Shown piece after piece: positions 3,506 to 18,654 of a stretch of 21,552 nt of DNA. The DNA lies in the NCBI GenBank assembly GCA_031364845.1, contig JANLWX010000094.1, forward strand, positions 1 to 21,552, written 5' to 3'. Source of the stretch: Candidatus Eiseniibacteriota bacterium. GTDB lineage: Bacteria > Eisenbacteria > RBG-16-71-46. Every line of letters begins with the position of its first letter. Within the stretch, counting starts at the first letter, position 1. The notes beneath the pieces are model-generated. The model made no database searches. It had not been told where the DNA came from and was given only the letters and a program-made list of their open reading frames with translations. Made by a program: the position numbers and the translations under genes.

Positions 3506-4621
3506 TCAGCGACGACCGCTGCGGCTCACCGGACGCGCGCGTCCTGCGCGGCCCGGCCGCGATGCAGCCGTATGACTGCGTGATGCTGCCGTGCGTTTCT
3601 TTCCGTTGCGGCTCGGTGCCGCGGCTTTCGCCCGCCGCGCCGGCACCGTCTTCTTCTTGGCGGGCGCGGACCTTGTGCGTATCGCCGCGGGCTTCACGCG
3701 CTTCGCGGGCTTCGCCGCGCGCACGCGACGACGTCCCATGAGATCTTTGACCAGCCCCGGAATCTCGGACGGGATGCGCGCGACCGGCACGCCGGCCGCC
3801 TCGAACGCCGCCATCTTCTCGGCCGCGGTCCCGGTGCCGCCCGAGATGATCGCACCGGCGTGCCCCATGCGCTTGCCGGGCGGTGCCGTCTGGCCCGCGA
3901 TGAAGGCGACGACCGGCTTCTTCACATGGCGCTTGATGAAGCGCGCGGCGTCTTCCTCGTCGGTGCCGCCGATTTCGCCCATGAGCACGATCGCCTCGGT
4001 CAGCGGATCCGCTTCGTAGAGTTCGAGCGCGTCGATGAAGTTGGTCCCGATCACCGGATCGCCGCCGATGCCGAGGCACGTCGACTGTCCGAGCCCGGCG
4101 TACGTGAGCTGATGGATCACTTCATAGGTGAGCGTTCCGCTGCGCGACACGACGCCGATCGGTCCGGTCTTGCAGATATGACCCGGAAGGATCCCGACCT
4201 TGCTCGCTCCGGGGCTGATGAGGCCCGGACAGTTGGGTCCGATCAGCCGCGGGCGGATGCCGCCGTTCGCCGCCCGGATGGCGGCCACATGATGGAAGGC
4301 CCCGAGCGCGTCGCGCACCGGCACGCCTTCGGTGATGCACACGATGAGCGCGACGCCCGCATCGGCCGCTTCGAGCACCGCGTCGCCGGCGAACGGGGCG
4401 GGAACGTAGATCACCGAAGTGTTGGCGCGGGTCGCAGCGACCGCCTCGGCCACGCTGTCGAACACCGGCACACCGTGGACCTGCTCGCCACCCTTGCCCG
4501 GTGTGACCCCTGCCACCACCTTCGTGCCGTAGTCGATCATCTGGCGGGTATGGAATCCGCCGTCGCGCCCGGTGATGCCCTGCACCACGAGGCGGGTGTT
4601 CTTGTCGATGAGGATGCTCAC
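3506..4621 (-). CDS. sucD: Succinyl-CoA synthetase alpha subunit with a 75-aa basic C-terminal extension
   Basis: [43 protein letters not shown], phospho-His motif [11 protein letters not shown]4621 overlaps the sucC TGA. Confidence 0.96.
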
Positions 4622-5777: not shown

Positions 5778-7262
5778 CTAGTTGTTGTCGATCTGCGCCC
5801 GCTGCAGGCGGCCGCTGAAGTCGACGTAGATGCTCTTCCATTCGGTGAACGCGTCGAGCAGCGTGTGTCCCGCTTCGCGATGGCCGTTGCCGGTGCCGCG
5901 CACGCCGCCGAATGGCAGATGCGTCTCGGCGCCGGTCGTGCCGTGATTCACGTAGACGATTCCGGTCTCGAGATCGCGCATCGCCTGGAATGCGCGATTC
6001 ACGTCGGCGGTGAAGATCGACGACGACAGTCCAAACGCGACGCGGTTGTTGACTTCGATCGCCTCCTCCAGCGAACCGACACTGAGGAACGACAGCACCG
6101 GACCGAAGATCTCCTCCTGCGCGATGCGCATGGCCGGCTTCACTCCGGAGAACACCGTCGGCTGATAGAACGATCCCTTGCCGAGCGTGGTGCCGGTCGC
6201 GCGTTCGCCGCCCGCGGCGAGCGTGGCGCCTTCGCCGGTGCCGATGCCGACATACTGATGCACGCGCTCGAGCTGCTTTTGACTTACGACCGGTCCCATC
6301 TGAGTCGCGGGATCGAGCCCGTCGCCGATGCGCAGGGCGCGCGCGCGCTGGACCACCAGCTGCAGCAGCTCGTCGTGGATCTTCTCGTGCACGATCGCGC
6401 GGCTGCACGCCGTGCAGCGCTGACCGGTGGTGCCGAACGCACTCCACGACAGGGCGTCGGCCGCGAGTGCGAGATCAGCGTCTTCCATCACGATCACCGC
6501 GTTCTTGCCGCCCATCTCGAGTGACACGCGCTTGCCGGTGCGGGCGCATTCGCCGGCGATCCAGGTGCCCACCGCGTTCGAGCCGGTGAATGACATCAGA
6601 TCGATGCCCGGATGCTGGACCAGCGGCTGACCGCAGCGGCCGCCGTCGCCGTGCACCAGATTGAACACGCCCGGCGGGAATCCTGCTTCCTCGATCAGCT
6701 TCGCCATGTTGACACCGGTCTCGGGCGACAGCTCGGACGGCTTGAAGACGATCGTGTTGCCGGCCAGCAGCGCGGGGAAGATCTTCCACGACGGCACCGC
6801 GAACGGAAAGTTCCACGCGGTGATCACGCCGACCACGCCGACCGGAACGCGCACCGACATCGCCCACTTGTTCGGCATTTCGCTCGGCGTCGTGACGCCG
6901 TACATGCGGCGCCCCTCGCCCGCGGCGAGATAGGCCATGTCGACGCCTTCCTGCACGTCACCGAGCGTCTCGATCAGGATCTTGCCCATCTCGCGCGTCG
7001 CCGCCTGCGCAAGCGACTCCTTGCGCTCCGCGATCAGCGCGCCCAACCGGTAGAGCATCTCGCCGCGCTTGGGCGCCGGTGTGAGCTGCCAGCCGCGCTT
7101 CGCCGCCTGCGCCGCCTCGACCGCGGCCGCGACGTCGGCGGCATCGGAATCGGGGAACTCGCCGATCGAAGCACCCGTCGCCGGATTCACATTGGAAAAC
7201 GTGCGGCCGGATTGCGCGGGCACCCAGCGGCCGCCGATGAAGTTGAGGAACGGTTCGGACAT
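5778..7262 (-). CDS. NAD(P)-dependent aldehyde dehydrogenase (substrate unknown)
   Basis: ITAWNFP, FKPSE, FTGS, catalytic LEMGGKN and GQRCTA, EEIFGP, PFGG. Start taken at MSEPFLNFIGG. Confidence 0.93.
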   Translation of the reverse strand: MSEPFLNFIGGRWVPAQSGRTFSNVNPATGASIGEFPDSDAADVAAAVEAAQAAKRGWQLTPAPKRGEMLYRLGALIAERKESLAQAATREMGKILIETLGDVQEGVDMAYLAAGEGRRMYGVTTPSEMPNKWAMSVRVPVGVVGVITAWNFPFAVPSWKIFPALLAGNTIVFKPSELSPETGVNMAKLIEEAGFPPGVFNLVHGDGGRCGQPLVQHPGIDLMSFTGSNAVGTWIAGECARTGKRVSLEMGGKNAVIVMEDADLALAADALSWSAFGTTGQRCTACSRAIVHEKIHDELLQLVVQRARALRIGDGLDPATQMGPVVSQKQLERVHQYVGIGTGEGATLAAGGERATGTTLGKGSFYQPTVFSGVKPAMRIAQEEIFGPVLSFLSVGSLEEAIEVNNRVAFGLSSSIFTADVNRAFQAMRDLETGIVYVNHGTTGAETHLPFGGVRGTGNGHREAGHTLLDAFTEWKSIYVDFSGRLQRAQIDNN

Positions 7263-7385
7263 CGATCGTCTCCGAGGCACGGGCCGGGATCGCTCACGAC
7301 CGCGTTCGGCCCCGGAGAGTTTCCGGGCGAACGGGCAGTCTGGAGAGTCGCGGACGCAGCATGCCGGAAGGGAAAAAGGACGAAT

Positions 7386-7492: not shown

Positions 7493-10400
7493 TTAGGCGG
7501 TCCCCTTCGGACGTGCAGCGGAGTCACGTTCTCCTGTGAACCCGGCGAACCGCGTACGAATGAACTCTCGTGCGCTGTCAGCGGAGAGTTTCACGGTCCC
7601 AGGGCCGCTCCTGACGAAGAAGTCGCCGTCCGCAACCGCTTCGACTCCCATCCACTTCAGGAAGACTGGTTCCGGGCTTCGTTGGCAGCTCACGAGGCAA
7701 ACAGTCCTTCCTTGCACGGCCTGCGTCTTGGGATCGATGCAGGTTCCAGCCCTGTCGCCCAGGCCGTTCCGAACCACCTGCGCCAAGTGCCGCATGAACT
7801 TGTCGTCGCTCTCCAGTTGGTCTCGCTCGATGCCGACGATCGAGCCGTCGTCGGCCACCCCGAGCAGGAGGTCACCGCCCTCAGTGTTGAGGAACGCGGC
7901 AATGGTCTTGAGCACGGCGTGCGTGACGCCATTGTCATCCCGCCGGTCTTCCCTGAGGCTCCAGCGCAGCGTGGACTTGAACTCCAGCGTCTTCGACTCG
8001 CCGGCCTTGATCAGCTCCTCGGCATTGCGGTGTGCACGCAGGTACTGGTCGAAGAGGAAATTCTTGATTGCATCACCGAAGGCGCGGTCGTCGGTAATGC
8101 GCTTGTAGAGATCGAAATTCGAGTCGACGATTTCCTGGATCACATGCTCGACCTTCTGATCGAAGGTGAGCCGCACGTTCTCGCGCGTGTTGACCCGGGC
8201 CGCCGCATCGAGCGCAGCATCGTCGTCGAGCTTCTCCATCATCTGGCCGAGCGTCACGCGGTGCTCAGGACCCAGGTTTAGCCCGAAGCGCTCGTTCAAA
8301 TCGGAGATGATCCGGGAGAGCGTCTCCAATTCCTCCGGAGTGACGCCGTGCCCCTGCTTGGTGCTCACGGGTTCGAGCACACCGGGCCTGCGCTCCAGGG
8401 CGATCTTGCCGCCGCCCGTCTGCTGGATCCGGTACGACTCCATGTCGATGTTCTGCTGCACCTCGCGCGGCAGTTCGGCCGGGTCGGCAGGGAGGAGTCG
8501 GCGGAGGTACCGCGCGAAGACGTAGAGCTTCTCGAGATCGGCGTCCGCAAAGGTCAGCACCTGTGCGAGGAACGCGTATAGCCGCACGTAGTCGGTGAGC
8601 TGCCCACGAAAGTCGGGCTGTTCCTCGGGTGGGAGAAGCCGAAAGCGTTCGACGACCGGGGCGAGCACGGAATAGAGCCGGTCCTGGGTCGCCTTGGGAT
8701 CGAAGTACGCCTTCGCGAAGGCATCCACGTCTGCCTCGTTGTAGATCGGAAAGGCGGCGAGGCGCGTTTGGATTTCATAGAGGAGATTCGGATCCGTCGC
8801 CTCGGAGAGCAATGTCGACTCGTAGTAGGGCTCAAAGGCAGCCCGGATCTCGTCCGACTCGTTGGCGAAGTCGAGCACCATCGTGCCCTTTTTCTCCGGA
8901 GGCAGCGTGCGGTTGAGGCGCGAGAGCGTCTGCACCGCGTTCACGCCACCGAGCTTCTTGTCCACGTACATCGTGTGGAGCAGCGGCTGGTCGAAGCCGG
9001 TCTGGAATTTGTTGGCGACGATCAGGAAGCGATATTCGGAGCGCTCGAAAGCCTTGGCGGTCTGCGATTCGCTGATCGCCCGAGGTTCTCCCACAGAGTT
9101 CATCTTCGTCTCCGTGTAATCCTTCCCGCCGTCCTTGACCGTGCCGGAGAAGGCGACGAGAGCCTTGAACGGAAAGCCGCGTTCGGCCAGGTACTTGTCG
9201 ACCGCCTGCTTGTAACGCACGGCGTGCAGGCGCGAACGAGTGACGATCATCGCTTTGGCCCTCCCGCCGATTTCACCCTGTACGCTGGCAGCGAAGTGCT
9301 CGACGCAGATCCTCACCTTCTCGCCGATGGCGTGCGGGTGCAGCTCTACGAACGACTTGAGCAGGTACGCTGCTTTGTTCTTGTCGTAGTGCGGATCGTC
9401 TTCGACTTTCTTGAGCAAACGCCAGTACGCCTTGTATGTGGAGTAGTTTGCCAGCACGTCGAGTATGAACTTCTCCTCGATCGCCTGGCGCATGCTGTAG
9501 AGGTGGAAGGGCTCGAACTTCCCGTCGGGTCGCTTCGTGCCGAACAGCTCGATCGTCTTAGGCTTCGGCGTGGCCGTGAAAGCAAACAGCGACAGGTTCT
9601 TGACGTGCCCGCGCTTGATGGCCTCGGCGAGCGCCAGCTTGTCGACTTCGCTGCGGTCTTCCTCCGTTTCGTCCTCGGTCTCGGCGTCCTCGAGTGACCC
9701 GACGGAGAGGACCTCCTTCAAGGGCTTCGTGCCTTCGCCCGATTGCGAGGAGTGCGCCTCGTCCACGATCAGAGCGAAGCGCTTGCCCGGCAGCTCACCA
9801 ATCTGCTTTGCGATCACGGGAAACTTCTGCAGCGTGGTGACGATGATCGTCTTGCCCGCCTCGAGCGCCTCTTTGAGCTGGCGCGAGGTAGTATCGATGT
9901 TCTCGACGACCCCCAGCGTTTGCTCGAACTGACGCATCGTGGTCTGGAGCTGGCGGTCGAGGATGCGCCGGTCGGTGATGACGACGATCGAGTCGAAGAC
10001 GCGCCGATCTGCCGAATCGTGGAGCGTGGCGAGCTGGTGGGCGAGCCAGGCGATGGTGAAGCTCTTGCCGCTGCCGGCCGAGTGCTGAATCAAGTAGCGC
10101 TGTCCCGGGCCCTTGGTGCGCGCATCGGTCACGAGCTTGCGCACGCAGTCGAGCTGCTGATAGCGCGGGAAGATCAGGAAGCGCTTGCCGGTCTTCTTCC
10201 CCTTCTCGTCCTCCTCCTCGACTTCGTGGATGAACTGGCGCACGAGGTCGAGCACGCTGTCGCGTGACCAGGTCTCTTCCCAGAGATAGCCGGTCGCGTA
10301 GCCGCTTCGTGTGGGAGGCACGGGCGGGTTGCCGGCGCCGCCGAACTTGCCCTGGTTGAGCGGCAGGAAGCGCGTCTTCGGACCGGCAAGCTGCGAGGTG

Positions 10401-11068
10401 ACGTAGACCAAATCGGGGTCCACCGCGAAGTGCGCGAGGCAGCGTCCGTATCCGAGGAGCGGCTCGCGCGGGTCGCGGTCGGTCATGTACTGGCGAATCG
10501 CGTCCTCGACATCCTGGCCGTTGAGCCGGTTCTTGAGTTCGGCGGTGAAGATCGGGATACCGTTCAGGAATAGCACCAGGTCGAGGCTCTTCTCGTTCTT
10601 CGTGCTGTAGCGGACCTGGCGCACAGCGGAGAAGAGATTCGCCGCGTGCAGCCGCCGCGTCTCCTCGTTGAGCCCGCTCGCGGGGCGGAAATAGGCGAGC
10701 CGGAATTTACAGCCAGAATCCTTGATGTCGCCGCGCAGAACGGCGAGCGCGCCGCGCCGCTCGATCTCGGCGGCGAGGCGCTTGAGGAACTGCTCGCGGA
10801 CCGCCGGGCCGTGGTGCTGCTCGAGCTTCTTCCACTCCTTGGGCTGCGTCGCGAGTACGAAGTCCACCACATCGCGTGGCAGCAGGCAGAGGGAACGGTC
10901 GTAATCCTCGGGCTTGCGTTTGCGGTAGCCACCCGCTGGCGTGTCGCCATACGGCGGTGGCGTTTCGCTGACGGCACTCGCCTCGCCCGCGCAGGCGTCC
11001 GGGCCGTGCTGGAGAAGTCCGCACTCAATCGCTTCCTCGAATGAGCGTTCGGAGATCTCGGGGCTCAT
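7493..11068 (-). CDS. hsdR: Type I restriction enzyme R subunit fused to a C-terminal Schlafen/AlbA_2 domain
   Basis: Nuclease motif LDLVLFLNGIPIFTAELKN, Walker A HSAGSGKS, DEAH, FTATPK, NKFQTGFDQP, VQTLSRLNR. The last ~170 aa (GESKTLEFKS...KTIAAFLNTEGGDLLLGVADDG...FFVRSG) match AlbA_2/Schlafen. Confidence 0.95.
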   Translation of the reverse strand: MSPEISERSFEEAIECGLLQHGPDACAGEASAVSETPPPYGDTPAGGYRKRKPEDYDRSLCLLPRDVVDFVLATQPKEWKKLEQHHGPAVREQFLKRLAAEIERRGALAVLRGDIKDSGCKFRLAYFRPASGLNEETRRLHAANLFSAVRQVRYSTKNEKSLDLVLFLNGIPIFTAELKNRLNGQDVEDAIRQYMTDRDPREPLLGYGRCLAHFAVDPDLVYVTSQLAGPKTRFLPLNQGKFGGAGNPPVPPTRSGYATGYLWEETWSRDSVLDLVRQFIHEVEEEDEKGKKTGKRFLIFPRYQQLDCVRKLVTDARTKGPGQRYLIQHSAGSGKSFTIAWLAHQLATLHDSADRRVFDSIVVITDRRILDRQLQTTMRQFEQTLGVVENIDTTSRQLKEALEAGKTIIVTTLQKFPVIAKQIGELPGKRFALIVDEAHSSQSGEGTKPLKEVLSVGSLEDAETEDETEEDRSEVDKLALAEAIKRGHVKNLSLFAFTATPKPKTIELFGTKRPDGKFEPFHLYSMRQAIEEKFILDVLANYSTYKAYWRLLKKVEDDPHYDKNKAAYLLKSFVELHPHAIGEKVRICVEHFAASVQGEIGGRAKAMIVTRSRLHAVRYKQAVDKYLAERGFPFKALVAFSGTVKDGGKDYTETKMNSVGEPRAISESQTAKAFERSEYRFLIVANKFQTGFDQPLLHTMYVDKKLGGVNAVQTLSRLNRTLPPEKKGTMVLDFANESDEIRAAFEPYYESTLLSEATDPNLLYEIQTRLAAFPIYNEADVDAFAKAYFDPKATQDRLYSVLAPVVERFRLLPPEEQPDFRGQLTDYVRLYAFLAQVLTFADADLEKLYVFARYLRRLLPADPAELPREVQQNIDMESYRIQQTGGGKIALERRPGVLEPVSTKQGHGVTPEELETLSRIISDLNERFGLNLGPEHRVTLGQMMEKLDDDAALDAAARVNTRENVRLTFDQKVEHVIQEIVDSNFDLYKRITDDRAFGDAIKNFLFDQYLRAHRNAEELIKAGESKTLEFKSTLRWSLREDRRDDNGVTHAVLKTIAAFLNTEGGDLLLGVADDGSIVGIERDQLESDDKFMRHLAQVVRNGLGDRAGTCIDPKTQAVQGRTVCLVSCQRSPEPVFLKWMGVEAVADGDFFVRSGPGTVKLSADSAREFIRTRFAGFTGERDSAARPKGTA

Positions 11069-12459
11069 GCGACCTCCTCCCGCACGTCGATCTTGCCCGT
11101 CACCGCGGCGGAGATGAGCGCGGTGCGGAGTTCCTTGAGGCGCTCGATGGCATCGCAGACTTTGGCAGCGAGGGCGTCAAGCTTGGCGACATGCCGCGAC
11201 ACCTCGCCTTGAATCTGAAGCATCTCGTCATGTGGAGGTACAGCCATGACAAGATTTCGGACGTCCTCTCCTGAAATCTTCCAGATTCCTGAGGCCGTTT
11301 GCGCCAGTAACTCGATCTGAAATCGGACTGCAGCCGAGTTCAAGCTGTTCACAAGAAACCAAGGGGTCACGAGGCGTGATGGCCGAACTCGGATCAGTAT
11401 GTCAGGATAGATGCAGCCCATCGGGGGCTCTTTCTTTAGGATCCCAACGCGGCCGACGACTTTCCGACTGCCGCTGCCCCTGAGCAAGAAGATGTCTCCA
11501 ATCGCCACAATGTATGGCTGAGCTTCTCGCTGCTCCAACATCGTGTACTTAACGTTTTCATCAATGAGCACTTCGCCATCGTTTACCGCAGCTGTCGAGA
11601 ACGTTGGGACATTGCCCACCGGTCCAATCGGAGGCGAAATACCGTTCCGCGGTCGAGCACTCAACGCATGACGGAGTCTCTTGAGTTCCCAATGCGCCGG
11701 AATCTCCCCCAGCCACTCGACGCCGGAGTCCTTCATGGGGACGTTCGCGTCGAGGCCCTTAGTGACGGCGCGGGTGACGAGGGCGGCACGACGCTCCTGG
11801 AGCAGATTGATTAGCCGCTCCTTCTTCACCACCAGTACATCGATTCTCGCCGTCTCTCGGTCGAGGAAGGCGGCGATGGCGCGTTGCTCGGGCTCCGGCG
11901 GGATCGCGAATACTCCGGTAGCAATAGCATCACCGCCAAGGCCAAATCGAGTGATGCCGTTGGCCGCCACCTGAAACTGATCTCGTGGGCCAACCGCGCT
12001 GAAGGCCCTGGCCAGAAACGGTCCGTGGTAGGTACGCTTCGGTCTGATGTGCGCTAGGTGGTATCCACACAGGACACCTGGCAAATCCTCGGCAACGACC
12101 GCCGGCACGGCGATGTCAGTCCAAGACTCTGAGTCTTTGGTGATGAGCACGTCACTTTCGCAAAGCGTGAACTTGCGCACTTGCTCCGGCGTCGCTGTAG
12201 CGGCCATGAAGTCCAAGACGGCTGTAATGCGCTCGTGGTAGTAGACGTCTGTGTAGTTGCAGAGGCGCACCGGCTCTTGCCCGTCGAGTGACTTCTTGTC
12301 GACGTTGCTGAGCTGAACCGCGGCGATGGTCTTCAAACGCTTCGGGACCCAATGCGCCGGAATCTCCCCCAACCACTCGACGCCGGAGTGCTTGTACGAC
12401 GGATACGGCTTGAACCGCCGCCGCGCTTCCGTCCCGTCGGCGTTCTTCGCCCCGCTCAT
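11065..12459 (-). CDS. hsdS: Type I R-M specificity subunit (two TRDs)
   Basis: Repeated conserved blocks YKHSGVEWLGEIPAHW / MKDSGVEWLGEIPAHW, PPEPEQRAIAAFLDRETARID, and C-terminal RTALISAAVTGKIDVR. Confidence 0.95.
   Translation of the reverse strand: MSGAKNADGTEARRRFKPYPSYKHSGVEWLGEIPAHWVPKRLKTIAAVQLSNVDKKSLDGQEPVRLCNYTDVYYHERITAVLDFMAATATPEQVRKFTLCESDVLITKDSESWTDIAVPAVVAEDLPGVLCGYHLAHIRPKRTYHGPFLARAFSAVGPRDQFQVAANGITRFGLGGDAIATGVFAIPPEPEQRAIAAFLDRETARIDVLVVKKERLINLLQERRAALVTRAVTKGLDANVPMKDSGVEWLGEIPAHWELKRLRHALSARPRNGISPPIGPVGNVPTFSTAAVNDGEVLIDENVKYTMLEQREAQPYIVAIGDIFLLRGSGSRKVVGRVGILKKEPPMGCIYPDILIRVRPSRLVTPWFLVNSLNSAAVRFQIELLAQTASGIWKISGEDVRNLVMAVPPHDEMLQIQGEVSRHVAKLDALAAKVCDAIERLKELRTALISAAVTGKIDVREEVA
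11688..12389. repeat. 42-bp direct repeat inside hsdS (11688-11729 and 12348-12389), 41/42 identical
   Basis: CCCAATGCGCCGGAATCTCCCCCA[G/A]CCACTCGACGCCGGAGT occurs twice, 660 bp apart, encoding SGVEWLGEIPAHW before each TRD. Confidence 0.9.
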
Positions 12460-14306
12460 GACGCCGCCTCCTCGTTCAACAGCTCGGGGATCCAGATCCG
12501 CTCGGCCATCTGTTGGTAGAGCACTTGCCGCGCATCGAGGTCAGACTTCTTGAACTTCACATGCGCGCGGAATGGCAGTTGGCTCTCCCCTATGAACCGT
12601 CGGAAGCCCGGGTTGTGGTCGTACGCGCGCTCATGAAGGCTCTTCGCGAGCAGATTTTGCCCGATGTAGTGCTCGCGCTTCTCGGAATACGGCAGATCGC
12701 CGTAGCTGGCGTTGAAGCTCTTGGGTAGGAGCAACAGGCCGCCGATCCGGTTGCGGTATTCCTGGAACTCGCTCGGGTGGGCGAACTCGTCCGTGTGCCG
12801 TTCGGGATGGTCCGCCCAGACGTGCTCGATCTCGTAGCCCTTACGGCCACGCTGGGCATACTCCGCATAGCGCGACGCCATCCCCGATTGCGTTTCCATG
12901 TAGTCCGTCATGCGCGCGAGCAGGCGATGGATCTGGCGGCCGTTCATTCCATGTAGCCGGAAGCGGTCGTTGCCGGCGAAGGTCTCGGCTTCGGCATCGA
13001 GTCGCTCGCGCAGCAGGGCAGCGAGATCGGCGGCGCTCATGCCGCGAATGTCTCGCATCACGAGGAACATCTGGTACTGCATCGTCGAGTAGTCGATCGC
13101 GCGCCAGTTCCAAATGCGGCGGTGGATCAGGATGTCGAGGTACGCCGTCACGACGCGGATCTTGCGCAGCACGGCGGCCTCGCCGTCCTCCACGCGAAGC
13201 GGCGCCAGCAGCACCGGGTACTGGAGCGTGAAGTTGTGCTGGGCGTTGAAGTGGACGCGCTCGAGCCCGGGTGTCAGCGTCTCCGCTGCCTGGCGCAGGC
13301 GCACATACCAGCCGCTGTAGAAGGCGAAGTCACGCTCGATGAAGCGGGCGAACTCGGCGCTGACGTCGAGACCGAGGCGGTCTTCATGGTCGCGCACCCA
13401 GCGGTGGAATTCGGTACCGATCAGGTCGAAGTCCTGTGGTGCTGCTCCACGCTTGCGTTCGCGGATGCTCTCGGCGTACTGGCTGCGTAGCCACGACTTG
13501 ATGCCGTCGGCGTCCTCGTCCTTGCCGAGATCGGCCAGTGCCTGCACCCGCTCCTTCCAAGTACGGCTCGCGCGCGTGCGCCTCTCGGCGTCGGTGATGT
13601 TCGCCAGCAGGTAGCCCTTCAGCATGTCCGCGGGTGTGAGCGAGAGTCCGCGGTCGTTCATCGTCTCGAAGATGGTATAGGCGTCGCCATCGGAGTATGC
13701 CGTGATCTCGACAAGGTGCACATTCTCAACTAGCCAGTCTACGAAGTATGGGAGCGCCGGGCCGGCGAGCTCTTCGGGGAAGAGGTCGTCCAGGTCGGCG
13801 AAACGCGCCAGGATATTGGCGATCGACTCCGGCGCGTCGGCATCAACGAACTCCTCGCCCTTGTAGAGCGCCTCCATGCAAGCGGCCCTCTCGGGGATGT
13901 CGAGGTTGAACGAGCGCTTGCCGAACTTTTGCGAGAAGATCAGATCGGCGATCTGCCCTTTCTGCTCGGTGTCTGGGAGCTTGTGATGGAGGAAGATCAG
14001 AAGCAGGGTCAGCGTGGTCAGACGCTGTTGCCCATCGATGATGAATTTCTGGCCGTCCTTGTCGCTGACGATGATCGAGCCGAGGAAATAGTGGCCGTAC
14101 TCGGCCACCGCGCTGCGCTCGTTGCCGTCCTCATGGCTCTCCAGGAACTTGGCTGCGAGGTCTTCGAGCAGCTCGGCGACCTGTTTCTGCTGCCACTTGT
14201 ACTCTCGCTGGTAGTAGTCGATCGAGTACTTGCGACCGGCGAGCAACTCGCGGACGGTGCGGCCCTTGCCGTCGATCTCGCGGGAGGGATGTTGTGTGTT
14301 GCTCAT
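12456..14306 (-). CDS. DUF262 (ParB/Srx-like) + DUF1524 (HNH-like) protein, GmrSD/SspE-family putative modification-dependent nuclease
   Basis: N-terminal YQREYKW, YFLGSII, IIDGQQRLTTL, IFETMNDRGLSLT; C-terminal YEIEHVW...NRIGGLLLLPKSFNAS...YSEK. ATG14306 overlaps the upstream TGA. Confidence 0.9.
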   Translation of the reverse strand: MSNTQHPSREIDGKGRTVRELLAGRKYSIDYYQREYKWQQKQVAELLEDLAAKFLESHEDGNERSAVAEYGHYFLGSIIVSDKDGQKFIIDGQQRLTTLTLLLIFLHHKLPDTEQKGQIADLIFSQKFGKRSFNLDIPERAACMEALYKGEEFVDADAPESIANILARFADLDDLFPEELAGPALPYFVDWLVENVHLVEITAYSDGDAYTIFETMNDRGLSLTPADMLKGYLLANITDAERRTRASRTWKERVQALADLGKDEDADGIKSWLRSQYAESIRERKRGAAPQDFDLIGTEFHRWVRDHEDRLGLDVSAEFARFIERDFAFYSGWYVRLRQAAETLTPGLERVHFNAQHNFTLQYPVLLAPLRVEDGEAAVLRKIRVVTAYLDILIHRRIWNWRAIDYSTMQYQMFLVMRDIRGMSAADLAALLRERLDAEAETFAGNDRFRLHGMNGRQIHRLLARMTDYMETQSGMASRYAEYAQRGRKGYEIEHVWADHPERHTDEFAHPSEFQEYRNRIGGLLLLPKSFNASYGDLPYSEKREHYIGQNLLAKSLHERAYDHNPGFRRFIGESQLPFRAHVKFKKSDLDARQVLYQQMAERIWIPELLNEEAAS

Positions 14307-15247
14307 GTGAGCGGCTCCTGTGCAGGCGTCGATGCAGTCCATGGACCAGCAGGCTGCCATCTGCCGGTGAGTGTGTCACCCGCCCCCAGTGAGGCCCATA
14401 CCGGGCCAAGGAAGTTCTGGAGCACTTCACCGACGACGCCGAAGTCCGCCGGTGCGCCGGGCATAGCATTGCGGGTGAGGTAGGCGCGCCACTGCCCTGC
14501 ACGAGCGCCGTCGGCGTAGAAGCGCGGCGCGAGGGCTGCGGGAAGCGCGGCGTCGATCTTGGTTCGGCGGCGCTCGAATGTCGCCGCGATCGACCTTGCG
14601 AGCGTTGCGCCATCGAACGCGAACTGTCGCGCCAACACGTGGAGGTCGTAGAAGTCCTTGTAGCGACTGTTGAGCTCGCCGAGCACGACCATCGCATGGA
14701 GCTTCTCGGCGACCACGGCCTCGTGCGGGTATGCACGGATGCGTGGAGCGGGTGCGTCGAGGAGTGTAGGGTAGTCGGCGTCGGTCGCTCCTGGCTCAAT
14801 GGCATTGCCGAAACCGATGTCGATCTGCATGCGAATCTGCGCGCTGCCGAGCCACGCCTCGAACACAATGCGGACTCCGCCGTACTCAGCTTCTTCCCGG
14901 ATGGGTTCCGTACGCAGGGTCGTAGCGTCGAAGGACATCCCGTCCTCCGGAGCGCTAACCAAGCAGATTTCCCTGATGCGATCGAGGACCGCTCCGATCT
15001 CGTTGCTGCCGTAGCCGGTGAAGTCGAGATCGCGCGTCGGCCGGTAGACCGAGCCTCCCCAGAGGGCGAAGAGCAGCGCACCCTTGAGTACGAACTGCTC
15101 GCGGTGTGGGGACTCGCCAAGTCGGTAGAGGAACCGCTCTGCGGCGTAGCGCTGGAGGATGAACTGCCGGTCCTCCCCACGGGCGAGCGCACCATTGAGC
15201 AGGCGCCTGTGAATCGAGGCGGCCAGGTTGCTCAGCGGACGGCTCAT
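14303..15247 (-). CDS. abiEii: AbiEii/AbiGii-family nucleotidyltransferase toxin (type IV TA)
   Basis: QRYAAERFLYRL, FVLKGALLF, RPTRDLDF (G...DxD motif), IQ/MQIDIGFG, VAEKLHAM, NSRYKDFYDL. ATG15247 overlaps the antitoxin TGA. Confidence 0.92.
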   Translation of the reverse strand: MSRPLSNLAASIHRRLLNGALARGEDRQFILQRYAAERFLYRLGESPHREQFVLKGALLFALWGGSVYRPTRDLDFTGYGSNEIGAVLDRIREICLVSAPEDGMSFDATTLRTEPIREEAEYGGVRIVFEAWLGSAQIRMQIDIGFGNAIEPGATDADYPTLLDAPAPRIRAYPHEAVVAEKLHAMVVLGELNSRYKDFYDLHVLARQFAFDGATLARSIAATFERRRTKIDAALPAALAPRFYADGARAGQWRAYLTRNAMPGAPADFGVVGEVLQNFLGPVWASLGAGDTLTGRWQPAGPWTASTPAQEPLT

Positions 15248-15852
15248 GGTGCGAGCGCTTCTAGATAGGCCCGCATCACGGTGCGGGCGCGGCACACCTC
15301 TGCGGCGCGCACGATCTCGCTTACGGTGGTGATCCGGGAGCGGACCGCCTCGCGCAGGGCTTCCATCGCCACGTCGATTCCCACTTTGTTCCGGTAGCGG
15401 AAGCAATCGACGACGGTTCTGGCGGGCGAGGTGATCGAGACAGGGACACCGAGCATCGGGCGCTGGAGCACACCGTAGGTAAGCATCGCGCCGGAAAAGC
15501 GCACGATGCGCAGGCGGGTGGGAACCCGCCTGGGCTTGCGGGCTTTGCGATCGAGCGCGATCCAGACCTCGTGCGGCGACTGCGTACCGATCCCGTGGAC
15601 GCGCAGCGCGGTGAGCAGGCAGACGATAGCGTTGGGAGCGGCGGAGGCCACCATTGCGATGGTCTCGAGCTCGTTCGGCTCGACTTCGGCGAGTCGATAG
15701 ACACCGCCACCGAGGTTCTCGACCGTGCCCTCGGCGGCGAGCCGCTGGAGCTGGCGGAACGACACGCCGAGCGAAAGGAGGTCGCGTGGCCGGAAGAAGG
15801 CTCCGACCCCCGCGGCCTTCAGGCGTGCCTTGGTCAGCGATGGCTTATCCAT
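15244..15852 (-). CDS. abiEi: AbiEi-family antitoxin / transcriptional regulator (N-terminal wHTH)
   Basis: FRPRDLLSLGVS...LQRLAAEG.V..LGGGVY, IVCLLTAL..HG..TQ.PHEVWIA, TSPARTVVDCFRYRNKVG.DVAMEAL. It lies directly upstream of abiEii. Start taken at ATG15852. Confidence 0.9.
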   Translation of the reverse strand: MDKPSLTKARLKAAGVGAFFRPRDLLSLGVSFRQLQRLAAEGTVENLGGGVYRLAEVEPNELETIAMVASAAPNAIVCLLTALRVHGIGTQSPHEVWIALDRKARKPRRVPTRLRIVRFSGAMLTYGVLQRPMLGVPVSITSPARTVVDCFRYRNKVGIDVAMEALREAVRSRITTVSEIVRAAEVCRARTVMRAYLEALAP

Positions 15853-15858
15853 TGCCGG

Positions 15859-15888
15859 ACGGTAATCGATGTCGGCACATCCATGCAA
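15859..15888 (-). promoter_or_regulatory. Putative internal promoter for abiEi (likely leaderless transcript)
   Basis: TTGCAT (15888-15883), an 18-nt spacer, TACCGT (15864-15859), then 6 nt to ATG15852. No Shine-Dalgarno is visible. Confidence 0.55.
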
Positions 15889-15946
15889 GTGCCGACATTT
15901 GGCGGCGCCGCCGGGGATGTCGGCACATCCCACCAAGTGCCGGCTT
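15869..15946. promoter_or_regulatory. Two tandem palindromic operators (probable AbiEi binding sites)
   Basis: IR1 is ATGTCGGCAC-N10-GTGCCGACAT (15869-15898, perfect). IR2 is ATGTCGGCAC-N10-GTGCCGGCTT (15917-15946, 2 mismatches). The period is 48 bp and the spacers are similar (ATCCnnnCAA). Confidence 0.8.
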
Positions 15947-15949
15947 CTG

Positions 15950-18067
15950 CTACTCCGGCCGGCCCACCGTCACCTCAGCCAGCATCCGCAAAATGTCCTG
16001 CTCAATGTCGCGGATCTCGCGCTCGATTACTTCCAATTCGCGGGGCGGGGTGTAGCGGTAGAAGTAGCGATTGAAATTGATCTCGTAGCCCACAAGACCA
16101 ACTTGGCCATCCTTGGGGTCACGCTTGGATGTGTCGATCCAGGCGTCGTCGACGTGGGGCCGAACCTCGCGCTCAAAGAAGGTTTCGACAGATTCGGCGA
16201 GCGGCACGCTCTCCGTGTCGCGCTGTTCCGGATCAGGCTCGGGATTACCGTCCTTGTCGCGGCAGACGGCAGCCTTCTCGTCGCGTTCAGAGAGCGCGGA
16301 GAGGATAGCTTTTCTGGCAGGGGCCGGGATCTTTACATCGGCCTTCATCGAGGCGGCATCGAGCATACGCTCAAACTCGGCGCGGTCATTAACGAGCCCG
16401 TCGGGCAACGCGAGCACGAGCTTGCGGATCGTCTCCTGCAACTCGCGCCCTTCAGCCTGCTCCTTCGCGCCTGCAGCGCCCTTCTTCTTCGATTGCGCGA
16501 GGGCTTGGAAGCCCTTCTCCTCTTCGAGCCGTGCAATGCGTTCCGCGCTTGCCTGAAAGTTGAGCTTGAGTGGTCGTTCGACGGTGACCTTGCGGAAACC
16601 GAAGTGGGTGGTCGGGAAGATGCGGCTGACGACGACGTCCTCTTCCCTTCCGTCCCTAGTCACCTTGCGCGTCTCGCCGTCCTTGAAGTCGGACAGGATC
16701 CGCAGAATGTCCTGGGAGCGCTCGAGCGGGATCACACGGCGCTTGTCACCCAGGCTCTTGGGCATCGGGACCCAGAATGAAGTGGCGTCGACGAGCTGAA
16801 CCCTTCCTTTGCGCGCAGACACCTTGCGGTTGGTCACGACCCACACATAGGTTGCGATCCCCGTGTTGTAGAAGAGTTGCTCAGGAAGCGCGATCAGCGC
16901 CTCCAGCAGGTCGTTCTCCAAAATGAAGCGACGGATCTCGCTCTCGCCGCTGCCGGCATCGCCCGTGAAGAGCGGCGAACCGTTCATGATGATGGCAATG
17001 CGCGAACCGCCGTCCTTCGGCTGTTTCGCGTGCGCGAGCATGTGCAGGAGGAACAGGAGCTGGCCGTCGCTGATGCGCGGCACACCCGGGCCGAAACGCC
17101 CTGTGGCTCCGCGCTCATGCTCGGCACGCACCGCGGCTTCGTCGCGCTTCCAGTCCTTGCCATAGGGGGGATTCGCGATGAGGTAATCGAAGGTTTTGCC
17201 AGCATGGCGGTCGTTGGAGAGCGTACTTCCGTAGCTGATGTTGTCCGCGTCGCGACCGGTCGGCTCCTTCATGAACAGGTCAGACTTCGAGACTGCCCAG
17301 GTCTCGGGGTTCACTTCTTGACCAAACAGATGGATCTCCGCGCTTGCGTTGATCGCGGGTCGGAGAAGACCGCCATTCTTCCGGAGGCCAACGGTGATGT
17401 GCTCCTTCGTGATCATCAGCATCCCACCGGAGCCACAGCACGGGTCGTAGACGGTTCGGATCGCCTTCTTGGCGCGAATCTCCTTCTCGTCGCCAGCGAG
17501 CATAAGATCTACCATCAGGTGCACAACGTCACGCGGCGTGAAGTGCTCACCAGGGTTTTCGTTCAGCGCCTCGTTGAACTTGCGGATCAGCTCCTCGAAG
17601 ATCGTACCCATCGTCGGATTGTCAATCTTGTCCGGGTGCAGATCGAGGCTCTTGAAGCGCTCCAGCACTTGGAACAGCAGCCCTGCTTCATCGAGCTTGC
17701 TGATGGTGTTGTCGAAGTCGAACTTCTCCAGCACCTCGCGCATGTTTGGGCTGAAGCCTGCAATGTAGTTGCGCAGGTTCGCCGCTAAGTGGGGAGCATC
17801 GGCGAGAAGTTTTTCGAAGTCGTATCGGGACGTGTTGTAGAAAGCAAAGCCCGAGGCCTTGCGGAGTTGTCCGCCGAGGTCGTCGAGCTTGCTCCCGAAT
17901 CTTCCTTGAGTTTCGAGGACCTTGGTTTTGGTCGGGGCCAACACGCAGTCGAGGCGACGGAGGACCGTGAGCGGAAGGATGATGTCCTGGTACTTGCCGC
18001 GTTTGAAGGTGTCGCGGATAAGGTCCGCAACGCCCCAGAGAAAGCTGACGATCTCACTATGGTTCAC
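15950..18067 (-). CDS. hsdM: Type I R-M methyltransferase subunit (N6-adenine)
   Basis: FLWGVADLIRD, GTIFEELIRKFNE...GEHFTPRDVV, motif I VYDPCCGSGGML, motif IV ANPPY, LFYNTGIATY. The GTG start overlaps the upstream TGA. Confidence 0.96.
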   Translation of the reverse strand: MNHSEIVSFLWGVADLIRDTFKRGKYQDIILPLTVLRRLDCVLAPTKTKVLETQGRFGSKLDDLGGQLRKASGFAFYNTSRYDFEKLLADAPHLAANLRNYIAGFSPNMREVLEKFDFDNTISKLDEAGLLFQVLERFKSLDLHPDKIDNPTMGTIFEELIRKFNEALNENPGEHFTPRDVVHLMVDLMLAGDEKEIRAKKAIRTVYDPCCGSGGMLMITKEHITVGLRKNGGLLRPAINASAEIHLFGQEVNPETWAVSKSDLFMKEPTGRDADNISYGSTLSNDRHAGKTFDYLIANPPYGKDWKRDEAAVRAEHERGATGRFGPGVPRISDGQLLFLLHMLAHAKQPKDGGSRIAIIMNGSPLFTGDAGSGESEIRRFILENDLLEALIALPEQLFYNTGIATYVWVVTNRKVSARKGRVQLVDATSFWVPMPKSLGDKRRVIPLERSQDILRILSDFKDGETRKVTRDGREEDVVVSRIFPTTHFGFRKVTVERPLKLNFQASAERIARLEEEKGFQALAQSKKKGAAGAKEQAEGRELQETIRKLVLALPDGLVNDRAEFERMLDAASMKADVKIPAPARKAILSALSERDEKAAVCRDKDGNPEPDPEQRDTESVPLAESVETFFEREVRPHVDDAWIDTSKRDPKDGQVGLVGYEINFNRYFYRYTPPRELEVIEREIRDIEQDILRMLAEVTVGRPE

Positions 18068-18654
18068 TCGGTTCGCTCTCCCTTAACGTCCATGTCGGCT
18101 GCGGCATCAACAGCATTGGCGACGCCGCGCATCGCCGATGCGTGCAGTGGCGCGACGCTGCCAATGACCCCCTCGATCCATCCGAAGCAGCTCTCGAACT
18201 CTCGCGAACGCGCGGCCGCATCGCTTCCCCAGTGGTCAAATTGGCGCGCTATGAAAGGAGTTTTGCCTACCATTCGCGTTTGCACCCACTCCCACAGGTT
18301 GCGATGAGATCCGTAGCTATTCCAATTGGAAAAGTGCGCCAGTACGATTGGGCGCGTAGGAGCCTTCTCAAGCTCGCCCAAGATGTACGGCCAGTACTTG
18401 ACGAGATTGTGGACGGCGATTGCCCCTGACTCGAATTCGACAACTAGAGTATGGGAAGTCAATTCGCTGCGTAGATCGCCAAGTTCAAAGCACTCGCCAA
18501 GCTTCACGCAGCCGTCCCGCCGTACTTTCGGGTGCGGCGCCAAGGCCGCGACGTTTGACTGACGCTGGCCGCCGCTCCAAATGAAGGAGGCAGCGAACCG
18601 AGTCTCGAACGCCGCCTTGAACTCCTTGATAAACGCGGCCTGAGGAAGTCCCAT
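18064..18654 (-). CDS. Hypothetical protein (196 aa), possibly PD-(D/E)XK-like nuclease fold
   Basis: The ORF is coupled to hsdM by a GTGA overlap, has an AAGGA RBS-like element upstream and a protein-like composition. It contains GDLRS...TLVVEFES....HN.VKYW. Confidence 0.7.
   Translation of the reverse strand: MGLPQAAFIKEFKAAFETRFAASFIWSGGQRQSNVAALAPHPKVRRDGCVKLGECFELGDLRSELTSHTLVVEFESGAIAVHNLVKYWPYILGELEKAPTRPIVLAHFSNWNSYGSHRNLWEWVQTRMVGKTPFIARQFDHWGSDAAARSREFESCFGWIEGVIGSVAPLHASAMRGVANAVDAAADMDVKGERTE

Follow-up and report, generated by a model that had tools for sequence, protein, structure and literature searches.

The last gene of a type I restriction-modification (R-M) cassette in a Candidatus Eiseniibacteriota genome encodes an HsdR restriction subunit that continues, in the same frame, into a Schlafen domain. 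This HsdR-Schlafen fusion is real, conserved and widespread, and it is apparently undescribed as a system. By analogy with related proteins we tentatively propose, with confidence that stops a little short of even, that it is an R-M-gated Schlafen tRNase, normally silent, which would be fired by a jammed restriction complex and would then slow translation, giving a second line after restriction. In textbooks, type I enzymes act as weapons against DNA alone. If the built-in RNase is true, restriction and translation arrest would be united in one polypeptide across a widespread clade. The cassette would then allow the question of how an R-M complex reports that it has failed, which work on PrrC has approached indirectly, to be put cleanly in a single operon, and it would add a further way of switching a bacterial Schlafen. 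The window denotes throughout the whole stretch of DNA analysed (21,552 nucleotides).

A Schlafen domain behind a complete HsdR

The gene and the motifs of its HsdR portion, the latter placed by motif location, lie in the window as follows.

7493..11068 (-), hsdR::slfn, type I restriction subunit with a C-terminal Schlafen domain, 1,191 aa in a single open frame
10532..10582 (-), HsdR PD-(D/E)xK nuclease residues D163, E177 and K179 (E177-L-K179)
9752..10084 (-), motor motifs from Walker A (HSAGSGKS, 329-336) to DEAH (436-439)

A Pfam scan of the product returned HSDR_N, ResIII, SWI2_SNF2, T1R_D3-like and SLFN_AlbA_2. An earlier reading, made from the sequence only, had described the nuclease D...ELK, Walker A and DEAH as intact, and all were found at the positions listed; with these motifs, and with hsdM and hsdS at the locus, the protein has the features of the HsdR class. 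The same reading had described an extra in-frame domain after a complete HsdR, which agrees with the single frame and with the plasmid-borne, unfused HsdR relatives, whose alignment reaches ∼aa 1005-1016 of the window's HsdR. The Schlafen domain is thus appended behind a complete HsdR. Chance or an assembly artefact was ruled out as the origin of the fusion, since the best 120 matches to aa 880-1191 all carry PF04326.

Fold and predicted active site

The domain and the residues of its predicted site are given below, with the evidence for each in brackets.

7496..8026 (-), Schlafen/AlbA_2 domain, aa 1015-1191, 177 aa (Pfam, AlphaFold2 model, Foldseek)
7976..7999 (-), E1024-x4-E1029-x-K1031, predicted nuclease site (motif search, conservation, bacterial Schlafen motif)
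7850..7852 (-), D1073, counterpart of the acid that follows the SLFN box in mammalian Schlafens, likely D248 of SLFN13 (profile alignment)

The region first assigned to the domain, 7493..8030, does contain it, but its end at 8030 is 4 bases too wide, the domain running from 8026 to 7496 on the minus strand. The SLFN_AlbA_2 (PF04326) match covers aa 1024-1161 (7586-7999) at 64.9-69.7 bits against a cut-off of 25.3, and in a genome-wide scan hsdR::slfn was the sole PF04326 match in the window's genome. An AlphaFold2 model of aa 1012-1180, made from an 86-row alignment, has a pLDDT of 94.9. Its top Foldseek matches are DIP2311, 2kyy, the tRNase domain of SAMD9 (TMq 0.63) and SLFN13/14/11/12/5, with E values from 5e-7 to 1e-3. 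The domain therefore models as a Schlafen fold, as had been supposed from the sequence, and has the Schlafen C-lobe expected of pSlfn proteins.

In a profile search, ESKTLEFK and GVADD align with C-lobe motifs of solved mammalian Schlafens, and a SAFAN-like box is present as IAAFLN (1056-1061). The active site of SLFN13 consists of E205, E210 and D248 (PMC5862951); the triad E1024/E1029/D1073 named by the sequence-only reading was located and fits it, with D1074 directly beside D1073 in the GVADD stretch. That reading overlooked K1031, which belongs to the predicted site because the catalytic motif of bacterial Schlafens, as defined by mutagenesis, is E-x4-(E/D)-x-K (PMC13056530; PMC13462974; RzAgo, bioRxiv 10.64898/2026.05.29.728809). 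With 22 K+R against 25 D+E the domain has no net basic charge, which weighs against a tRNase.

Conservation and selection

Conservation was assessed in 131 fusions of at least 1,140 aa, out of 167 proteins and with the window's protein included. The E/E/K/D site is intact in 127 of them, and in 73 of 76 locus-derived sequences, so the proposed triad is indeed conserved among fusions. The HsdR nuclease D/E/K is intact in 130 of the 131, and the motor motifs are invariant. Since the nuclease is kept, the Schlafen domain supplements restriction rather than replacing it. The domain is evolving under purifying selection, with a median dN/dS of 0.09 versus 0.13 in two HsdR regions, values that are rough because synonymous sites are close to saturation (513 of 600 sampled pairs were unsaturated). 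Conservation covers the whole domain: 29 of 157 positions never vary, and the four catalytic positions, which vary once or twice each, are no more invariant than those 29. The relatives in the set are ∼85% identical throughout, which cautions against over-reading the conservation of the site. E-x4-E-x-K persists in distant fusions, where the domain is 45-50% identical or belongs to another branch.

Altered copies also occur. The site is changed and the remainder of the domain kept in L048, L117 and P0238, which may be natural inactive controls or assembly errors; in the hsdR tail of L048 three catalytic residues are changed together. The HsdR proteins P0125 and L085 end right at the start of the Schlafen domain.

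Distribution of the fusion

When relatives were searched with scoring on aa 560-1012 alone, so that the Schlafen domain was excluded from the score, PF04326 was present in 118 of the 119 nearest HsdR relatives, and the lone exception terminates exactly at the domain start. Among 217 confirmed GTDB loci, the best 80 are all fused and come from 14 named phyla, a set biased toward fusions by a query that contained the Schlafen domain. In the window's phylum the HsdR family was found in 26 of 206 genomes; the 26 places outside the window comprise 12 fused and 11 unfused genes, one truncated at the junction (a close relative), one with an S24 tail and one cut by a contig end. An unfused HsdR used as query against another phylum gave matches in 22 of 401 genomes. 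A fusion is present at 21 of the 23 places examined (of 24), and E-x4-E-x-K is retained in all 21; in two of these hsdR is interrupted upstream.

Presence is patchy and identity is 75-93% across loci of the 14 phyla, which points to horizontal spread of the fusion. It was not found on plasmids among the matches listed (40 of 766 plasmid records with an HsdR match), nor in a search of phage records. Cultured, non-pathogenic carriers with intact loci include a Cyanobium sp. (L041) and a Pelomicrobium sp. (L030).

Recruitment of the domain and other HsdR tails

A tree of 79 HsdR rows, for which 22 of the closest fused rows were taken at random, places the window's protein within a 37-row clade (SH-aLRT 97) of 35 fused and 2 truncated proteins, adjoined by unfused clades at ∼60% identity. 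The fusions L160/L161/L164 and P0225 are placed elsewhere on this tree. A single clade of all fused HsdRs was rejected (p-AU 0.001; 54 rows, 25 omitted) with quick, unrooted trees that have long branches, in a topology test posed after the tree had been seen. In the outlying fusions, and in L212, the Schlafen domain lies outside the main Schlafen group, which favours repeated recruitment over one gain followed by losses and suggests that Schlafen joined HsdR repeatedly. The closest non-HsdR relatives of the domain are mostly proteins of 380-450 aa with an N-terminal part that matches Atu1473 by profile and that we take to be ATP12-like. This label is also present in the catalogue of PMC13056530.

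The same HsdR tail position can bear an S24 peptidase-like domain, alone or behind Schlafen, and both HsdR-Schlafen-S24 triple fusions and HsdR-S24 proteins without Schlafen exist (P0225, of 1,329 aa, P0178 and P0209; L110/L096). The S24 domains keep Ser and Lys motifs like those of LexA, and a self-cleaving switch is possible in these proteins. In L173, from the sister clade, HsdR ends in a 117-aa domain that resembles, read by eye, a minimal nucleotidyltransferase. The HsdR tail is a promiscuous position, since domains of these two kinds also occupy it, which weighs against the role proposed below. Related Schlafen domains also terminate other proteins, P0184, P0250, P0272 and P0245 (an 816-aa protein, RNase HII, a PLD-like and a TPR protein); the 816-aa protein has no other Pfam match, and its Schlafen domain is 62% identical and belongs to the HsdR-fused group.

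The cassette and its cargo

The other features of the cassette are listed in order from hsdR::slfn outward.

11065..12459 (-), hsdS, 464 aa, ATGA overlap with hsdR
12456..14306 (-), GmrSD/DUF262-type gene, 616 aa, variable cargo slot
14303..15247 (-), abiEii, nucleotidyltransferase toxin gene
15244..15852 (-), abiEi, antitoxin/repressor gene
15868..15949 (no strand), two related palindromic boxes, 48 bp apart, likely the AbiEi operator before abiEi-abiEii-gmrSD-hsdS-hsdR
15950..18067 (-), hsdM, 705 aa

The cassette thus reads hsdM-abiEi-abiEii-GmrSD-type gene-hsdS-hsdR, and its last five genes, abiEi to hsdR, are linked by ATGA overlaps. Since the boxes ahead of abiEi recur in similar form in most relatives and AbiEi autorepression works through inverted repeats (PMC3985639), AbiEi likely controls hsdS and hsdR::slfn. 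No conserved gene was found 3' of hsdR::slfn, 73 of 81 flanks being unique, and control of the protein is therefore likely to come from the R-M complex itself.

Of 42 main-clade fused loci with both ends visible, 33 have an AbiE pair between hsdM and hsdR, and 5 more have AbiEi alone. The pair is present in 4 of 11 unfused sister loci and in none of 5 distant unfused or 2 distant fused loci; a second sample had it in 13 of 16 new fused loci and in the one unfused sister. Because kin are non-independent and the pair also occurs without the fusion, we regard it as cargo of a wider clade. Identity between loci is 40-81% for AbiEi and mostly 76-92% for HsdR, a difference that suggests swapping. 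In L004 and L005 AbiEi is followed by DarTG in place of AbiEii, and in L006 directly by hsdS. Other cargo includes Fic, DarTG, GmrSD, DUF3644 and IrrE-like/DUF4411 genes, and a Fic/DOC gene of ∼387 aa often stands between hsdS and hsdR in many fused loci (for example L028, L029, L032 and L035, at about 6220-7380).

Four further observations concern single loci. A 1,021-aa open frame at L036:3156-6218 matches AbiEii plus HsdS, a possible toxin-HsdS fusion or lost stop codon. In the window, a 196-aa ORF at 18064-18654 (-) overlaps the hsdM start and matches nothing in Pfam, PADLOC, NCBIfam or the 80 related loci. At ∼3506-4500 (-) there is an ORF that looks, named by eye, like succinyl-CoA synthetase alpha with a long Lys/Arg/Ala-rich tail at its end. 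A short hydrophobic stretch near the contig start (∼280-420, +), which we take to resemble the start of the flagellar stator MotA, runs into unrelated sequence and is possibly a gene remnant or a misjoin.

A proposed role and its alternatives

The tRNase chemistry and the control by oligomer state in our proposal are borrowed from related proteins. RorSlfn5, CbCash and RzAgo are tRNases with the E-x4-(E/D)-x-K motif that are off until triggered (PMC13056530; PMC13462974; bioRxiv 10.64898/2026.05.29.728809), and CbCash and RzAgo are activated via oligomer changes (PMC13462974; bioRxiv 10.64898/2026.05.29.728809). Partner domains, besides the oligomer state, act as switches of bacterial Schlafens. 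For the window's protein itself we infer the latency, the trigger, the tRNA target and the benefit to defence. The Schlafen domain would be a metal-dependent tRNase that is silent by default, with the state of the restriction complex as its switch and the R-M complex as sensor and scaffold. The most likely trigger would be jamming by a phage DNA mimic or stalled translocation, upon which the activated domain would cut tRNA and slow translation, a second line after restriction.

We favour a jammed complex as the trigger because successful restriction needs no back-up and because HsdM- and HsdS-type fusions without the motor exist; the latter also mean that a motor-specific trigger is not required. 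PrrC with EcoprrI is a precedent for the guard logic. Stoichiometry argues against it, with four Schlafen domains in RzAgo versus two HsdR in an R2M2S1 enzyme. RorSlfn5 reduces burst size without aborting infection, and 5 of the 7 bacterial Schlafen systems assayed in E. coli failed to protect it (PMC13056530), so an abortive outcome should not be assumed. We consider doubtful a fuller version, in which a repeatedly recruited Schlafen tRNase would make the enzyme its own guard, reading the conformation or oligomer state of R2M2S1 and stopping translation once restriction is overcome by phage DNA mimics or by blocked translocation; the S24-peptidase variants would add a further switch.

The evidence so far fits a jammed-complex trigger and plain activation on unmodified DNA alike. 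In the latter case every encounter of the enzyme with unmodified DNA would trigger the tRNase, R2 assembly or collision gathering two to four domains. RzAgo rebuilds a two-lobed cleft through dimer and tetramer formation and is licensed by target DNA and ATP (bioRxiv 10.64898/2026.05.29.728809), collision of two translocating complexes would bring four domains together, and the fusions show no variation in the motor motifs. We nevertheless judge such co-activation unlikely, as Schlafen also occurs on the motor-less HsdM- and HsdS-type proteins and a tRNase that fired at each restricted phage would come at the expense of cells which restriction saves by itself.

It is similarly improbable, in our estimate, that the domain has a role other than tRNA cleavage, for instance in binding nucleic acid, in oligomerisation, in regulating the restriction enzyme or in cutting a different RNA. 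A protein with the catalytic acids need not cleave tRNA: human SLFN5-N and mouse SLFN1 keep the acidic residues and did not cut it (PMC5862951). The conservation of the entire domain rather than the site alone, the other accessory tails at the same HsdR position and the 'DNA binding' or 'RNA-binding domain' labels that NCBI gives some members also speak for such a role. However, main-clade proteins retain all four predicted catalytic residues, distant fusions retain E-x4-E-x-K, and each bacterial Schlafen assayed in the cited papers (RorSlfn5, CbCash and RzAgo) cuts tRNA.

Patchy spread at high identity, a cassette rich in toxin-antitoxin cargo (AbiE, Fic, DarTG) and the site-dead or truncated natural copies (L048, L117, P0238, P0125, L085) would suit an addiction module, in which the RNase punishes loss or decay of a mobile cassette, for example loss of HsdM or HsdS, with phage defence secondary. 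This we hold to be very unlikely, given the plasmid and phage results above and the rarity of dead copies (4 of 131). A neutral passenger or annotation artefact, to which the few truncations exactly at the domain start (P0125, L085) might point, is largely refuted by the low dN/dS, the retention of the domain in nearly all nearest relatives and its repeated recruitment, and its probability is negligible.

Comparison with known systems

The sequence-only reading knew of no characterised HsdR-Schlafen fusion, and none was found described in the accessible text of the literature or in the accessible parts of the catalogue of PMC13056530, whose 55 prokaryotic Schlafen architectures contain no full-length HsdR fusion. 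No HSDR_N, ResIII, SWI2_SNF2 or DEAD entries were found among the 5,930 pSlfn proteins of its supplementary file 21. The nearest rows are one 516-aa T1R_D3-like plus Slfn protein (filed as a P-loop NTPase), one N6_Mtase-Slfn, two Methylase_S-Slfn and TRD groups; the 516-aa row is probably a fragment of an HsdR-Schlafen fusion. Four pSlfn architectures were tested in that work, the R-M-type rows not among them.

The window's protein resembles the pSlfn proteins RorSlfn5 and EcoSlfn7 (Perez Taboada et al. 2026, PMC13056530) in its PF04326 domain, its E-x4-(E/D)-x-K motif, its fusion to another module and its defence locus, and differs from those catalogued in that the partner is a whole HsdR. 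In RzAgo (SLFN-pAgo) and CbCash too, a Schlafen of one lobe is joined to, or governed by, a defence machine that targets DNA, and the output of these two is tRNA cleavage (bioRxiv 10.64898/2026.05.29.728809; PMC13462974). Those systems set the oligomer state by a GHKL ATPase or a cA4 sensor, whereas the hsdR::slfn product has neither. The RzAgo preprint describes a Schlafen-GHKL module on a type I S subunit rather than on HsdR (bioRxiv 10.64898/2026.05.29.728809); the Cash paper reports methyltransferase fusions and R-M neighbours, and HsdR was not found in its supplements as available (PMC13462974).

As in PrrC with the type IC enzyme EcoprrI, a tRNase (here predicted) is tied to a type I R-M system as a proposed second line (PMC1484252; PMC3710099; PMC12707154). 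PrrC, however, is a separate ABC-ATPase plus HEPN protein (PMC3710099; PMC12707154), while the window's protein carries an unrelated fold, Schlafen, within the HsdR chain itself. A PrrC or RloC homologue was rejected, as neither the hsdR::slfn product nor the scanned cassette genes contain an ABC-ATPase or HEPN domain; of the PrrC-like idea first put forward, the covalent link to a type I R-M subunit stands. With EcoR124I HsdR and its kind the protein shares the HSDR_N nuclease, the RecA-like motor and hsdM and hsdS in the operon, and it differs as a distant subfamily (E ∼1e-13; below the TIGR00348 cut-off) with a 177-aa extra domain. Schlafen fusions to HsdM and HsdS-type proteins were already known from the catalogue (PMC13056530); what appears new is the full HsdR as partner.
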